From assembly GCA_963514005.1 (NCBI GenBank), contig OY740810.1:12834001-12898000 (forward strand): DNA of 64,000 bases, given 5' to 3'. The notes under the pieces were generated by a model. It did no database searches, had not been told where the DNA came from, and worked only from the letters and a program-made list of their open reading frames with translations. The position numbers and the translations under genes are program-made. This document shows positions 10,691 to 20,178 of this stretch, one piece after another. The number at the start of each line of letters is the position of its first letter. The stretch's first letter is position 1. The stretch is from Raja brachyura (lineage: Eukaryota).

Positions 10691-12783
10691 AGCATTGATT
10701 TATCATTGCTGTCCTTTCAAAACAAGGTCAGAGGTAGGATTTTGCACTGTGTTGCAATGCCTTCAGCACTCAGATCATCCTTGCATGCAGCTAGAAACAT
10801 TCAACATGGGGTGAAAAGTGGGAAATAACACTGGCACTAGACATGTCTAACCATCTTCTCCTGACATTCAACAATATTTTGAATGCACCTGGATCAAGTT
10901 AAAACCTGGGTACCCCGAGGCACAAATTGCTACTAACAACTAAAGTCATTCCATCATCTATAATGCACAAGTGCAGTGGAATATTTCCAAGTTGATCAAA
11001 TGAGTGCAGCACCATCTCAAACAACCAACAGAGAGGGCACCAAACTAATACTGCTAATCATTCATTTCCTCCACCACTGCAACTACAGGCTGCAGCTTGC
11101 ACTTTCTACAAAGTGCACTGCAACAATTTGGTAAGACTTCAAAAGTAGCGACCTATGATCGCCTTGAAGTAGAAGTCCAGTAGCCATGTGAAAATGCCCC
11201 CACTTGGAAAATGAATTACAAATCATTCAGTGTTGCTGGATCTAGATACAGGAACTGCCCTACAAAGCCTTTCTCTTGCTCTTGTATCCACAATTTAAGT
11301 GGCAAATGACTGTGCAAATCAATAGATTTTACACGTTGCTCTGTTTCTCTCTTAATCAATCAGTGTCTGATGTGCTGAGTATTTTGCAACTTTTTGCTAT
11401 TTCTATTTCCAATCTGTGCAGTATTTGTGCTCTAGCATTGTGGAGTAATTGTTTCTAGGTTAGATCGAACTGCTTCCATTGATTCTTCATCAAACCTAGA
11501 CAAAGAATTATTCTCCTATTAGCACTGTTGATTTCACATTGGTTAAAATAAAGTAGAGGATACAAAAGGAAGATACAAGCAAATTATGTAAAAATGTTGT
11601 TAGCAAGTTAGATTTTTGTCAAAAACTGATGAGCACAGTATAATTAAGATAAGAACATCCAGATGAATAGATATTGTATTAAATTGACATACTGTGTAAA
11701 ATAAATCTGACAGCATCTTAAAATCTCTAAAATATAATTATTGCAGCCTTCGCAAGGGCACAATGACTTAGATACACTGGGACCTCGATGATCATAATGT
11801 TGGCACCATGTCAAATATCAGGTTTGGATTATCAATCGGTAACATTATCTAAGTTTTCCTCACTCTCGAGGGCATGCTCAACATTTCCAGCATTTTCTTT
11901 TTAGATTTCCGGTTTCAATAACAGTTCTGACGTGCATTTCAGAACTTTAATAGGTCCCTTTGTTTTCTGTCTCTCTCTTATTGCACTAATTAATTTATTC
12001 ACTAGATAGTTCCTTAAACATTGGGATCTCCTGATTTCATCTCATCAATGATAATCTCTGTGACTATGCAACCCCATCTCATCTGCCAAGTGACCCTCTC
12101 TGTAACCCAAAGCTAATGTGTTTTCTCAGATTCCTAGTTTTGATGAAGGAGTCACAAACTGAAAAGCTTATTGTGCTTACTGGGTTTCTCCTTCCACGGA
12201 TGTTACCAGACATGCTGAGCAATTTCCGATTTTTTATTCATATTCCCTGCACTTGCAACTTTAATTTTCTATTACTGTCGACATCCAGTGGTTTTCCTAA
12301 TGAAACTAAGCTTTCTCATCTTCCATAAAGGTGTAGATTAGTTGGAAATACATTTACTCCACCATCTGCCATCTCCACCCTGTATCCATTTAACACTTGC
12401 CACACTTTGCCCCCACTTCTCTTTTCCAGGTTTCTCCCACTACTCTAATCAGTCTGAAGAATAGTCCTGACCCGAAATGTCGTTTGTTCCAATTCCCTCT
12501 ACAGATGCTGCCTGACCCACTTAAATCCTGCAGCACTTTGTGTTTCAGTCAAGATTCTGGCCTGTGCAGTTTCACGTGTGTCCATATTTATTCATATGTT
12601 TTGTTTTAACTTTACTTTTGTACACATTTTGCTGGTAAAGTAATAATGAATACACCAGTACAATGTTGTTATATTTTCAAACAGGAACAATGATAAACAA
12701 TGGGATTTCAACTATTTATGTTATGCAATCAGTTATATAGATCAAAACAATAACTACATTAATCTGAAAATATCCATATGTTA

Positions 12784-14280: not shown

Positions 14281-14763
14281 TATCAAAATTCAAAATAAAT
14301 GTACAAAAATGTAAACAAAAACAGTTTACAGTTTATAGTTACTTTATTTATAGTGCTTATTTTATTGTACCACATAATTGTAGGCTGCATTTGAATTTTA
14401 TTGTGCTGAATAAAAATCAATTATTAAATTAGCAAAGATAACTGAAGAAAAAAAATACACAGGCCTATGTTAACAGTTGAACAATTTCAAGATAGTAAAG
14501 ATCATCCAATGTTCAAGTTGACAAACATTGTATCAGTGAAGACTGAAAAACTGAAACTAGTCTGAATGTATTAGATTGCAACACATTTCATTTCGGAGTC
14601 ACGTGAGTGACTTCGTGAAGAGCCCGCCGGTGCGCATGCTCGACATATCGTCGTACCGCGTTGCTGAGACGGCTGGCGGTGGAGCGCGCTCCTCGCCAGC
14701 CCTTCATAAGGGGCCACGGAGGTAAGTATTCTACCTTTAGTTGGTGGTCCTTGTTGTCTGATT

Positions 14764-15564
14764 ATGTCTTGCAGCAAGGACATGGATGGGAGTTTCAAGG
14801 GCCGGAGGATGTCTGGACGAATTCGACGGCCAACAGTTCCGCCTGCAGCGCAGGCCGGGACTCAGGCGGAGATGTGGGTAAGCCCTGTGTTTACAGGTCC
14901 AAATCCGCCAGCACACCACAGCTCGGAGGAGTTCGACGAGGAGGAGTGTGGAGTGCCGCCAGAGCAGGGGGACCCTGCCATGGCAGTCAGGTCGTCAGCG
15001 GGCTCGCTGGCGACCTCGAGCAGGGCACGTGCCGTTGCACGGCCTGTTCCACTCATCCCTCCGAGAAGGGGGAGGGCAGGAGCCCAGAAGCCTAACCCTG
15101 TTAGGGCTAAGGCATTGCCTGCCGCGGAGGAGCGGTCAGGTTCCAGGGCGAGACCCGGGGCGGCTGTGAGGTCTAGCCGGCACACCCCGACTCTCGACAC
15201 CGGGACGGGCCGGTTGAGTCGGGTCTCGTCACGGTCGCCGAGCCCCCCATGGATGGGTGGGCGAGACCATGCGTCGGCAAGGTCCTTAGTCCAAGGTCAT
15301 GGCCCCAGGCAGCCATGCTTCGGCTGGTGGCGACACCACGCCGCAAGTGTCCTTAGTGGCAGCGGCTTCAGCTCCCGCTAAACGGAGGCGGTTGAACACG
15401 CCCGCGCAGGAATCGCGCAGTTTCGCCTCGGCGGCTGTCAGCGACAACTACCGGCACCGGCAGGGCCTCGACGAGGTGCGGGCGATGACAGGAGCCCGGT
15501 TTTCTTTTCAGAGCCGGAGGACTCCGACCACCTGAGTGTTCAGGGTGAAGGGCGTATTGACCGT
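14764..15564 (+). pseudogene. DIRS gag N-terminal low-complexity region, interrupted or intronic
   Basis: ORF 14764..15381 is in the same frame as 15565..16479 but is separated by TAA at 15379-15381. An overlapping frame (15299..15535) carries PAKRRR. Confidence 0.5.
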
Positions 15565-16479
15565 ATGGAGCGGCTGCTGGAGCTCCTGCTTCAACGTCAA
15601 CAACAGCAGGGCAGCAACAGGCACAGGGCGTCTTCACCAACATCTACTATCAGCCTGGAGCAGCAGGAGGAGGAGGTTCTGGTGGATCCCGTACCACCTC
15701 CGTTGGAGGTGCCAGCGGAGGAACTCTTGGATGTGGCGACCAAATTCGCGGCCCCACATTCATCTGGTCTTCCTCTAAATACAAAGCTGGCAGCCACAGT
15801 GGACTTTCTTAATAATCAGGTGCTGCAGGAAGAAGTCCTCATCCAGGCTATGAGGCGTCACAAGGCTCCATCAAACTGCAACTCCCTCAACGTGCCTGTG
15901 GTCAATACGCCAATATGGGGCAACATCAGTGCGGCTATCCGTCAACAGGAGCTAAAATTGCAGCGGATCCTGAAACTCCTCACGGCCGGTATTACCGCCT
16001 TTGCGCGGTCGGTGGACGGGGACGAACTGAATTTGGACCAGGAAGATGCTCTGGCCCTATTGTGCGCGACCCAGCATGAAATCAACGGGTTTCGCAAAAA
16101 CAGCATCCGCCAAGCACTCAACCCGAAGTTTGCAGGATTGTGCAAACCACCGCCGCCGCCCCGTCAGCTCTTTGGTGAGGACCTCTCGAAGAGAGTCAAA
16201 GAGCTTGACGAACAAGCCAAAACGGTGGGGAGCATGCGCTCTCAGAGTGCCCCCACACCGTCAGGCTCAAAAGCTCCATACATTCGCTCACGAGGGTCGG
16301 CCAGTGCCTCGACGAGGACTCACCCTCTAGCTCCACAACGACAACAGCACCAGAACCAGCACCAAGGGTCTTTTTTAGGACAGGGTCGGCAGAGACCTTG
16401 GTGGAAATCGAAGACGCCGCGCCCTCAAGCCAACCCAGCACCTCCATGGCCACCCACACGTGTCAAGGACCGCCGGTAA
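15565..16479 (+). CDS. DIRS gag-like protein, 304 aa
   Basis: Lies upstream of pol; carries DIRS-gag-type motifs VNTPIW, DALALL...RKNSIR.ALNPKF.GLC and LFGEDL. Confidence 0.8.
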   Translation: MERLLELLLQRQQQQGSNRHRASSPTSTISLEQQEEEVLVDPVPPPLEVPAEELLDVATKFAAPHSSGLPLNTKLAATVDFLNNQVLQEEVLIQAMRRHKAPSNCNSLNVPVVNTPIWGNISAAIRQQELKLQRILKLLTAGITAFARSVDGDELNLDQEDALALLCATQHEINGFRKNSIRQALNPKFAGLCKPPPPPRQLFGEDLSKRVKELDEQAKTVGSMRSQSAPTPSGSKAPYIRSRGSASASTRTHPLAPQRQQHQNQHQGSFLGQGRQRPWWKSKTPRPQANPAPPWPPTRVKDRR

Positions 16480-16481
16480 CC

Positions 16482-18410
16482 ATGGAGGTGAGGGGGTCTG
16501 GTTCTCTTTTTTCTCTCTGTTTAACTTCCCATGTTGGTGGTCGTTTACGGTTGTTTTTGGGTGCATGGGGTAATTTTACTGGTGATGAGTATGTGTTGCG
16601 GAATATTCAGGGGCATAAAATTGAGTTTATTAATGGCGACATTCCTCCATCCCAGCACATGCCTGGTCGTACGTTTAAATTGTCTGCTGCAGAACAGGCA
16701 GCAGGTTATAAGGAAATTTTAAGTCTGGAACAGAAGGGTGTGATTGAGAAAACGGTGCATGAGCCAATTGAATTTGTTTCGAACATATTTACTAGACCTA
16801 AGAAGGATGGAGGCTGTCGTGTCATTATTGATCTAACCCGTTTGAATACGTTTGTAACATATACTCATTTTAAAATGGATACGTTTGAAACAGCCAAATC
16901 ATTGATTTCTCATGGTTGCTTTATGGCATGCATCGATTTGAGGGATGCATATTATTCAGTATCCATCCAGAAATATGATAGAAGGTTTTTGAAATTTATC
17001 TGGATGGGGCAACGTTGGCAGTATAAGGCTTTGCCTAATGGGCTCACTACAGCCCCTAGATTGTTCACTAAATTGGTGAAGCCAATCATGGCTTATTTGA
17101 GACAACGACATCATATAGTTATGGCCTATTTAGATGATGTCTTTATTGTGGGCCACACCCTGCAATTGGCTGAACAGGGTGTTGCAGCTGCTGTCAATAT
17201 ATTTCAACAATTAGGATTCATTGTCCATCCAGAGAAATCGAAGTTCTGCCCTGCCCAGGTAATTAATTACCTAGGGTTCACGGTGAACTCAATGAGCATG
17301 AGGATAACTATACCAATTAACAAAATTGAGGAAGTCACTCAGGTGTGCAGAGATTCAATTGGCACCAATATACCATCGATTCGGCATACAGCCACAGTAA
17401 TTGGCAAGCTAGTGGCTTTGTTTCCGGCAGCACGATATGGACCTTTGCATTATCAGAATTTGCAAAGAGCTAAAATTACTGCGTTAAAACGGAACGCTGG
17501 TCATTATGATCGATCAATGCAGCTGCCGTCCGAAGCGATAACTGAGTTGCAATGGTGGGTGTGTCACATTAGCAACTCATTCAAGCCTGTTAGGGAGGCT
17601 AATCCGGTGGTATATTTACAGACTGATGCAAGCTCCAATGGCTGGGGAGCTACTGATAATTGCTCTAGTTGTGGGGGCAGATGGGACACCCTTGAGTCAT
17701 CGATGTTGTTGACTCAAGGGATTAACTATTTGGAGTTGCTGGCAGCATTCCACGGACTTCGTGCATATTGTTCCAAGCTTGTTGGAGCACACGTCCGTCT
17801 CCAAATAGACAACACCACAGCTGTGGCATATTTAAACCATATGGGTGGTACCAGGTCAGTTTCATGTGACAAATTGGCTAACTCAATTTGGCTCTGGTGT
17901 GTTCAAAGAGACATTTGGATTTCAGCTACCTATTTGCCAGGTGAGCTTAATACTGTGGCGGACACCAGGTCACGCAAATTTAATGACAATATTGAATGGA
18001 TGTTGCATCCTGAGATTTTTTCTAAAGTCACAGCCAAATTTGGTAAACCGGACATTGACCTTTTTGCGTCACGGTTAAACCATCAGGTACCAGCCTACGT
18101 TTCATGGGAACCAGATCCTGGGGCAATAGCGCTAGATGCATTCTCGCTGGACTGGGGGAATTGGTTTTTCTATGCCTTCCCCCCGTTTTGCCTCATCAGT
18201 CGGGTATTGCGAAAGATTCAGGCAGATGCTGCCAAGGGCATCCTTATTATACCCGACTGGCCCACACAGCCTAGGTATCCGGTGGTCTTTGACATGCTCA
18301 ACGAACCTTGGGTCCTTTTGAAGGGTTGCCCACAATTGGTTACTCACCCTGTCTCAGGGGAGCCACATCCCTGCCATGGCTATTTAAATTTGTTGGCTTG
18401 CAGATTCTGA
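16482..18410 (+). CDS. DIRS pol: reverse transcriptase + RNase H + Dam-like adenine methyltransferase domain, uninterrupted
   Basis: RT: VGGRL, IDLRDAYYSV, LPNGL..APRLFTK, YLDD. RNase H: TDAS..GWGA, INYLELLA, DNTTAVAY, N..AD..SR. MT: DLFAS, DAFSLDW, FPPF. The ATG at 16482 follows the gag stop by 2 nt. Confidence 0.95.
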   Translation: MEVRGSGSLFSLCLTSHVGGRLRLFLGAWGNFTGDEYVLRNIQGHKIEFINGDIPPSQHMPGRTFKLSAAEQAAGYKEILSLEQKGVIEKTVHEPIEFVSNIFTRPKKDGGCRVIIDLTRLNTFVTYTHFKMDTFETAKSLISHGCFMACIDLRDAYYSVSIQKYDRRFLKFIWMGQRWQYKALPNGLTTAPRLFTKLVKPIMAYLRQRHHIVMAYLDDVFIVGHTLQLAEQGVAAAVNIFQQLGFIVHPEKSKFCPAQVINYLGFTVNSMSMRITIPINKIEEVTQVCRDSIGTNIPSIRHTATVIGKLVALFPAARYGPLHYQNLQRAKITALKRNAGHYDRSMQLPSEAITELQWWVCHISNSFKPVREANPVVYLQTDASSNGWGATDNCSSCGGRWDTLESSMLLTQGINYLELLAAFHGLRAYCSKLVGAHVRLQIDNTTAVAYLNHMGGTRSVSCDKLANSIWLWCVQRDIWISATYLPGELNTVADTRSRKFNDNIEWMLHPEIFSKVTAKFGKPDIDLFASRLNHQVPAYVSWEPDPGAIALDAFSLDWGNWFFYAFPPFCLISRVLRKIQADAAKGILIIPDWPTQPRYPVVFDMLNEPWVLLKGCPQLVTHPVSGEPHPCHGYLNLLACRF

Positions 18411-19388
18411 ACAGACCGTTAGTCCAATACGGCCTCTCGGCGCGGACCATGGATACCATTGGGGCGTCGTGTCGAGAGTCCACAAGGCGAAGATACCGCT
18501 CGCATATTAAGAAGTGGGAAGCCTACTGCAGCCGCTCTCGCATCACGTATGATGACGTGACAATAACCGATGTCCTGGAATTCCTCGTGGGGTTGCACCA
18601 TGATGAACACTTAAGTTACAGTGCCATCAACAGCGCCAGAAGTGCGTTATCATTCTACCTCAATATTGAGGTAGGATCCAACAGGCTAGTGTCCAGACTC
18701 ATGCGGGGTATATTCAATATGAATCCGCCTACACCACGCTATAGTATCACCTGGGATGTCAGGGACGTATTAACCCTGCTCAGGACGTGGTCTCCCATGG
18801 AAGGGCTCCAACTGGACCAACTCACCATGAAGCTGGTGATGTTACTAGCGCTGACTTCAGCTCAGAGGGTACAGACACTACACAAACTTCGTGTCGACAG
18901 AATGATTTCTACCCCTACAGAAGTAGTCTTTTTTTATTGACGAGCTATTAAAGCAGCTTAGACCTGGGTGCACAGGGCTGCAGCTGAAGTTCCCGGCATA
19001 CCCCGCAGATGCTAGGCTATGTTTAGCCTCACATATCCGCCACTATGTCAAGGTGACGGCACGCATCAGAGGAATGGAGAGATACCTGCTTGTCACTCAT
19101 AAGAGACCTCATCATCGAGTGACAGTCCAGACGATATCCAGGTGGCTGCGAGTCGTCTTGGGTAAGTCAGGTATCGACACTAATGTGTTCAAGTCTCATT
19201 CCACCAGGGCTGCATCGACGTCAGCGGCGAGGAATATGGAGGTGCCTATGGACCAAATTCTCGCTACAGCAGGATGGGCTAATGAAGCTGTGTTCCAGCG
19301 TTTTTATAACAAGCCTGTTGCTGCTCCTCTACAGTTCGCAGAAGCCGTGCTGAATGCAGGTTCAGAACGTGGAGATGTCCCCGCATGA
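18404..19388 (+). pseudogene. DIRS tyrosine recombinase with a single +1 frameshift at a T7 run (18929-18935)
   Basis: Removing one T joins ORFs 18308..18940 and 19053..19388 (..VVFFIDELLKQLRPG..). Catalytic R (SAQRVQ), HxxR (HSTR), W (AGW) and Y (FYNK) are all present. Confidence 0.92.
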
Positions 19389-19529
19389 GGGGTTTTGATT
19401 TGTTATTAATAAATATGCTCTTGTTTTGCAGTAAGAACTATTGAGCAAGTTTGTTCCTCCCATCCATCCCTGGTAGTGGTGTGTCAGCATGGACGTGGTC
19501 CAGGGCGTGTAATCACAGAAGCTTTGAAG

Positions 19530-19642
19530 TCTTCACGAAGTCACTCACGTGACTCCGAAATGAAATAGTAAGATTGAACGAGAACTTACCAGTTCGAAGG
19601 TTGATCTTTATTTTATGAGGAGTCGAAGTGAGGGATTTCGTG
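19530..19642 (+). repeat. DIRS internal complementary region (ICR)
   Basis: Exact reverse complement of the right-end/left-end circle junction (...AATCTTACTA|TTTCATTTCGG...). Confidence 0.95.
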
Positions 19643-20178
19643 CCCTCCTCGCCCAACCCTCAATCACCTTCATCTGGTAATCTTAGTCACTTCAATCTTA
19701 CTATGCGAAGTCATTTCTATTGTTGGGTTCTGTGATTCCACGCCGCTACTTTGAAGTATGTCGAGCATGCGCGCCGGCGGGCTCTTCACGAAATCCCTCA
19801 CTTCGACTCCTCATAAAATAAAGATCAACCTTCGAACTGGTAAGTTCTCGTTCAATCTTACTAATCTCAATACATGCCCTTGTCCCAAATAGTGCCCCGA
19901 CCCACTGAGTTCCTCCAGCACTTTATGTTTTGTTCAAGATTCCAGCATTTGCAATTTATTATGTCTGCAATATAATCTCATCCATTTACCACTCCAACTA
20001 AATGATATGTAATGATGCAGTCATCTGATAATAGATATTTCGCCAATATCTCATGTTCCTGAACATCTATTGTTAATTTTACTTATCTCTGTAAAATTTC
20101 TATATTGAATTGTGCTGCTTCGAAAAACTTGTAGTGTAAGAATGCCTACACATAGAAACTATAAGGACAAAATGTTTA

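Follow-up and report, generated by a model that had tools for sequence, protein, structure and literature searches.

How a tyrosine recombinase (YR) without a start codon of its own comes to be translated is a question raised by DIRS retrotransposons, which are widespread in animals and in which this is often the case: in 18 of the 48 families analysed here, the YR frame holds no Met up to 12 codons into its conserved part. One such element lies in the window, the 64,000-nt stretch of Raja brachyura DNA analysed here. The original prediction for this locus was that pol doubles as an intron, its removal joining the pol ATG and one further codon in frame to YR, with a single start codon serving both proteins. 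We now offer a route with exact coordinates: it is likely that pol is spliced out as an intron and that the frame common to pol and YR is entered by a -1 shift near the end of gag, which would give Gag, Gag-Pol and Gag-YR. Taken singly, removal of the pol segment by splicing is very probable, and it is quite likely that a conserved -1 slippery site explains entry to the pol/YR frame.

The element and its parts

The element at 14585–19863 of the window is a DIRS1-type retrotransposon belonging to a young and large family. The best 40 matches to its pol region are 99% identical, and the pattern at the start of pol has 4,179 matches in the genome; among named proteins, the nearest to its products come from skates. 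A reverse transcriptase (RT) in ORF2, a YR ORF, inverted termini and an internal complementary region (ICR) matching both ends are all present, and no long direct repeat, as in the split direct repeats of Ngaro and PAT, was found within the window element. Copies end in ATT with unrelated flanks (those of the left terminus vary from copy to copy) and the right end in the window reads AAT, consistent with trinucleotide ends without target-site duplication. The features discussed below are as follows.

14585–14647, + strand: left terminus, an inverted terminal repeat, inverted to 19530–19566 and 19757–19801
14722–14727, + strand: candidate splice-donor-like site in the 5' leader, its position kept across subfamilies
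14764–16479, + strand: gag (ORF1), assigned by its place in the element; split at 15381 in the window copy
16371–16377, + strand: predicted -1 slippery heptamer T TTT TTA in gag phase, in 30/30 copies
16378–16487, + strand: transframe segment in the -1 frame, common to the predicted Gag-Pol and Gag-YR and overlapping the gag tail
16482–16484, + strand: ATG of the original prediction, ACG in most family copies
16488–18403, + strand: predicted GT-AG intron of 1,916 nt, holding the RT-RNase H-methyltransferase coding region
16488–18410, + strand: pol body (RT, RNase H-like, methyltransferase (MT)-like), open in the window copy; RVT_1, E 6.5e-20
18404–19388, + strand: YR exon; Phage_int_SAM_4, E 1.7e-06, and Phage_integrase, E 4.5e-05
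18449–18451, + strand: internal ATG in the YR frame, in strong context, in 30/30 copies
19530–19642, + strand: ICR, complementary to both element ends
19757–19863, + strand: right terminus, an inverted terminal repeat pairing with the left end

ORF1, which had no Pfam match, was named gag by its position, after the available portion of PMC3266345; in many other copies it is a single ORF of about 600 codons. The window copy is damaged, with gag split at 15381 and a break in the YR frame near 18930 that occurs in one of the 29 copies covering the site. Within pol, the MT part matched Dam at E 0.0039, under the Pfam cut-off, and RNase H gave no Pfam match at E 0.1; acidic motifs and an FPPF motif are visible in the translation. 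For YR, the Phage_int_SAM_4 match is over the cut-off and the Phage_integrase match under it. The element is flanked by a 77%-identical 62-nt pair (12511–12572 and 19896–19957), probably a fragment of a host SINE or LINE. A strong acceptor-like pyrimidine tract with AG also lies within gag at 15500–15511; the corresponding site of the pol-less family described below looks different.

Candidate splice sites, start codons and a predicted slippery heptamer

Comparisons beyond the window family were made on 85 loci (the window's own, 18 from same-genome sister families and 66 metagenome contigs at 35–52% pol identity), which fell into 52 families at 80% nucleotide identity; 11 of these have no 5' region and 4 no 3' region, leaving 41 and 48 usable families, respectively.

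The letters of the original prediction stand where it placed them (ATG at 16482–84, GAG at 16485–87, GTGAGG from 16488, CAG at 18401–03 and the pol stop at 18408–10). Its phase 0 to phase 0 join also held, with a codon of the YR frame (ORF 18293–18940) beginning at 18404, and that frame has no ATG from its upstream stop to the GLS motif. Both the GT at 16488 and the AG at 18402–3 are kept, joined in frame, in 30/30 copies. The start codon fared differently when copies and relatives were aligned: splice dinucleotides and phase are kept and the ATG is not. The codon at 16482 is ACG in 28/30 copies (the best 30 of 40 scored from 3,844 candidates, counting the window copy) and in 98 of the 100 copies listed among the 4,179 pattern matches; the ATG of the window copy would have arisen by CpG decay of an ACG. 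The spliced reading M-E-I is thus right as an in-frame join and wrong in its residues, since the family reads T-E-V, with G as the first base of exon 2 in 29/30 copies.

As a general route, one ATG starting both Pol and YR is not supported, with ACG in the window family and ATG at this position in 1 of 41 families; an ATG anywhere between the gag stop and the donor is found in 8/36. Within subfamilies of this genome the ATG start appears to keep some standing locally, the equivalent codon being ATG in 18/30 and TTG in 12/30 of sister subfamily sequences, and ATG, directly behind the gag stop, in 30/30 copies of another subfamily. The pol frame of the window copy is open from 16209 and has an earlier ATG at 16446. 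Among 20 sampled copies, 13 have a 733-codon pol frame in which the first Met is codon 151; because this Met sits inside the conserved region, pol would need another entry. The ATG at 18449, 15 codons into the YR exon and unmentioned in the original prediction, is not conserved outside the window family, sister families having no Met at that part of YR.

Donors were scored against the splice-donor consensus with a simple score of our own, the threshold being 5 matches among the 7 consensus positions other than GT. A phase-0 donor reaching this score lies within 150 nt upstream of the conserved pol start in 40/41 families, compared with 34/475 control windows from the pol body; one family of the 41 has no donor in the tested window. 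By column, the donors have G in 36/41 at -1, R in 39/41 at +3, G in 38/41 at +5 and T in 30/41 at +6. In the frameshifting families the donor is placed just 3' of the gag stop, in a stretch of little protein conservation. The GT..AG ends and the donor consensus are those of a U2-type intron.

At the other end of pol, the predicted acceptor shifts place between lineages while staying in the YR phase. The acceptor of the window, at the Cys-Arg codons of the pol end, is confined to one clade of 8 families; in most other families an AG in phase follows the FPPF motif some 70 codons further upstream, and in five the candidate acceptor is 15–27 codons upstream, while in one of the 48 (L111) none of the main acceptor kinds has an open frame. 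An open YR frame of at least 66 codons occurs in 29/30 families with the AG after FPPF and in 5/18 without it, against a background of 18/306 windows. In 43/48 families the best-scoring AG within 370 nt is in YR phase 0. By a simple score of our own, the window family's acceptor is weak, its polypyrimidine tract scoring 11, under an out-of-phase AG 46 nt upstream; most relatives have strong tracts (14–16). On a quick tree of 45 of the 48 rows (3 short rows left out) the acceptor label changes about 5 times. Throughout these comparisons p-values overstate the evidence because families are not independent, the Cys-Arg acceptor group and the fused gag-pol group each being one clade.

In the 36 families with separate gag and pol frames, a heptamer T TTT TTA/G or A AAA AAC occurs in gag phase in 34; the same heptamers in the two other phases number 2 and 1. 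The arrangement is that of a -1 frameshift site, with an X XXY YYZ heptamer read in frame 0 and an open -1 frame downstream. From the heptamer onwards the pol frame stays open in 33 of the 34 families, with one stop in 967 codons past the heptamer compared with 244 in 3,400 before it. The exceptions are two families without a core heptamer and one with a stop after it. Predicted pseudoknot-free structure downstream is modest, with a mean z of -1.15 (-0.27 upstream; 13/34 below -1) and a z of -1.32 in the window family. A reading of the T run as a splice acceptor was ruled out: several families have TTTTTTG, no AG after the run, or A AAA AAC.

We propose that ribosomes shift frame at the heptamer and that the recombinase would act as a fusion to Gag. 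Unspliced RNA would give Gag and, by the -1 shift, Gag-Pol, and would double as the genome; spliced RNA would give Gag and Gag-YR and could be copied in trans. The same shift at 16371–77 would thus lead to pol where the intron is kept and to the recombinase where it is spliced, and the RT:recombinase ratio would be set by the splicing rate multiplied by the shift rate. A Pfam search of the element detected no protease domain.

The heptamer is missing from all five families in which gag and pol share a frame, and these five form one clade (L132, L136, L143, L148 and L149). Each of them (5/5) has two donors 5–8 nt apart, in phase 1 and then phase 0, and alternative splicing may have replaced the frameshift in this clade. 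A version in which the phase-1 donor gives Gag alone was dropped: the stop that comes 0–1 codon later in 5/5 is also found in 15/29 of the other families, and so does not discriminate.

Genomic copies without pol

Precise removal of the predicted intron was seen in the genome itself, which is DNA evidence. The exact predicted-junction pattern had 5 matches, 3 of them DIRS copies without pol. A wider junction pattern had 90 (0 for the reversed-pattern control), made up of 87 from one amplified family, 2 mosaics and a single copy, L197; L195, L198, L311 and L312 were chance pattern matches. L197, the same element as L231, has both termini and is 96–99% identical to 8/8 full-length copies tested, and the only part it is missing is the 1,915–1,916-nt GT..AG segment of full-length copies. 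The junction has at least two independent origins, because L231 is only 69–95% identical to the amplified family. The two mosaics (L291 and L292) were not counted as a third origin; they have ends from the pol-less family and a gag core from a full-length subfamily, which suggests template switching between co-packaged RNAs.

A search for a purine-AG joined to the YR exon start had 109 matches. The 100 listed comprise 85 with this junction, 13 with mutated acceptors and 2 non-DIRS chance matches, and no other join to the YR exon was found among them, despite 18 upstream AGGT sites. No sequencing run recorded as RNA was found to carry this stretch, and one presumed to be RNA, in contigs of another organism, was neutral, with the donor–acceptor joint in 0 of the 15 joints listed of 34 and in 0/8 joints. 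The junction copies would be reverse-transcribed spliced RNAs copied in trans. For DIRS-1, the portion of PMC7192593 available has the RT acting in trans. The core of the original prediction, pol as a retained intron whose removal leads to YR, is supported by these exact-junction copies together with the phase-locked sites of 41–48 families.

The amplified pol-less family appears to have the frameshift fixed in its DNA. In 20/20 sampled copies, 2 nt are lost from the T run of the heptamer, which brings gag into the frame of the transframe segment and YR. In nine of the 20 an ORF running from gag still spans the junction, and in one of the 20 it is open from codon -403 to the YR end, as a gag-YR ORF of 730 codons. 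Most copies are decayed, and in several the fusion is broken once more by loss of another nucleotide. Polarised changes on the pol-less branch number 16 silent and 17 replacement in gag (dN/dS about 0.34, p 0.002; parent branch 0.06) and 4 silent and 0 replacement in YR, although recombination with full-length copies blurs the dN/dS of this branch. Since the fixed 2-nt loss retraces nearly the same protein path as a -1 shift, it favours a Gag-YR fusion over initiation at an ATG.

Members of the pol-less family (L293–L302) have about 1.5 kb of extra 5' sequence with repeats. Although 1.9 kb has been lost, seven of these copies are thus 4.8–5.0 kb long, where four full-length parents measure 5.3 kb; this may hint at a length constraint. 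Separately, one of 16 matches in a search for fusion proteins, a sea-urchin RefSeq gene model (P0121, XP_071502116.1), has similarity to gag, the transframe segment and YR and none to pol; we take it as a lead only.

Competing routes and known systems

Other routes to Pol and YR were weighed against this reading. In one, the splice is real and both proteins start by reinitiation just behind the gag stop, at ATG or the near-cognates ACG and TTG, giving free Pol and free YR. The codon lies 2 nt past the gag stop in good context, is ATG, ACG or TTG in all same-genome subfamilies seen, and is retained as ATG in the pol-less family. Most one-letter changes of ATG yield near-cognate codons, so ACG and TTG say little. 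The scarcity of ATG across families noted above tells against reinitiation, as does its frequency from heptamer to donor (11/34, with 7.3 expected), and reinitiation leaves the stop-free transframe segment, the heptamer and the fixed 2-nt loss unexplained; we regard it as unlikely. More improbable is a route with no functional splice, in which deletion at the DNA or RT level between AGGT microhomologies made the pol-less copies, and a second -1 shift at the pol/YR overlap, or initiation at internal ATGs, gives YR. Both intron ends do share AGGT in the window family, and a template jump or repair deletion could yield the same junction; yet one element holds 48,059 pairs of four-letter microhomologies at least 500 nt apart, and two independent events hit the predicted pair, with the search of YR-exon joins above pointing the same way. 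The donor consensus, moreover, sits in a poorly conserved part of the protein. In nearly all loci the YR frame is offset by -1 from that of pol, the window family carries T TTA AAT, in pol phase, immediately ahead of its acceptor, and frameshifting has been proposed for the YR of Ngaro (Poulter and Butler 2015, as quoted in part of PMC13003380), but the pol-end heptamer is missing in sister families, and a second frameshift at this place was rejected as not conserved. Internal initiation could draw on the ATG at 18449, against which stand the 18 of 48 families without a suitable Met.

Least probable, and in our judgement very much so, is YR translation from a subgenomic RNA in which the leader donor at 14722 is joined to the YR acceptor, gag and pol being removed and the internal ATG serving as start. 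The leader donor is strong and keeps its place, roughly 135 nt into the element (+131 to +139 from its 5' end), in the window family, three other subfamilies and 8/10 sister loci with a 5' end, although the flanking sequence differs between subfamilies, and the ATG at 18449 is at hand. Nevertheless, a pattern search with the window family's leader found 0 genomic copies in which this donor runs straight into the YR exon or the slippery site, L231 retains the donor unspliced, and many families have no suitable ATG. A 10-mer common to the leader and pol donors in the window family is not kept in other subfamilies and was treated as chance.

The reading we prefer, pol splicing combined with a gag frameshift, was set beside systems already described. 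With DIRS1-like elements, as far as the available portions of PMC3266345, PMC9210276 and PMC7192593 go, the element shares gag, RT/RNase H/MT and YR ORFs, inverted terminal repeats, an ICR and a short pol/YR overlap. Those portions do not address the expression route of pol and YR, for which splicing and frameshifting are here supported from DNA sequence, and splicing goes unmentioned in those of PMC3266345 and PMC9210276. The design was not found described in the literature searched, again in partial texts (PMC7192593, PMC3266345, PMC9341512, PMC13003380, PMC3783388, PMC9210276, PMC6681497 and PMC4157794 among them); three primary papers outside that search, Poulter and Butler 2015, Goodwin and Poulter 2001 and Poulter and Goodwin 2005, may already mention splicing or frameshifting. 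The programmed frameshift for Ngaro YR was the sole expression proposal found in these texts. As excerpted there, Ngaro is alike in that YR overlaps the RT/RNase H end in the -1 frame with no clear start of its own; it differs in that the conserved slippery site here is at gag/pol, with none conserved at pol/YR, and YR would be reached by splicing.

Two wider classes of retroelement offer parallels. Gag-pol -1 frameshifting is established in retroviruses and Ty3/gypsy elements, with U UUU UUA in HIV-1 and A AAA AAC in MMTV and HTLV. The same two heptamer types, a pol in the -1 frame and a transframe peptide recur here, the difference being that a single frameshift would serve two alternative enzymes, with intron retention deciding between them. 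Spliced subgenomic RNAs are known for retroviral and gypsy env, Drosophila copia gag and foamy-virus pol. As in those cases, removal of pol (or gag) would set protein ratios, with the unspliced RNA as the genome; here, however, splicing would yield the integration enzyme, fused to Gag, and the spliced RNA, in which both ends and the ICR are still present, would have founded a mobile pol-less family.

We lean slightly towards a broader reading, in which animal DIRS1 elements share this switch: a gag frameshift would feed RT or YR according to pol splicing, YR would be loaded into particles as a Gag fusion, and the switch would have been rewired in evolution, with the acceptor moved, one clade turned to an in-frame gag-pol with tandem donors, and a spliced RNA founding a pol-less family with the frameshift fixed. 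Such a reading predicts a Gag-recombinase fusion and would make frameshifting and intron retention parts of a single switch governing three proteins. It would also explain a pol-less non-autonomous class of DIRS as retrotransposed spliced RNAs, and suggests that genomic junction copies can replace missing RNA data. DIRS ORF2 and ORF3 annotated from the first ATG would then have a wrong N-terminus. In the window copy, 16446 and 16482 are two ACG-to-ATG changes producing start codons that are missing from most copies, a trap when single methylated copies are read.
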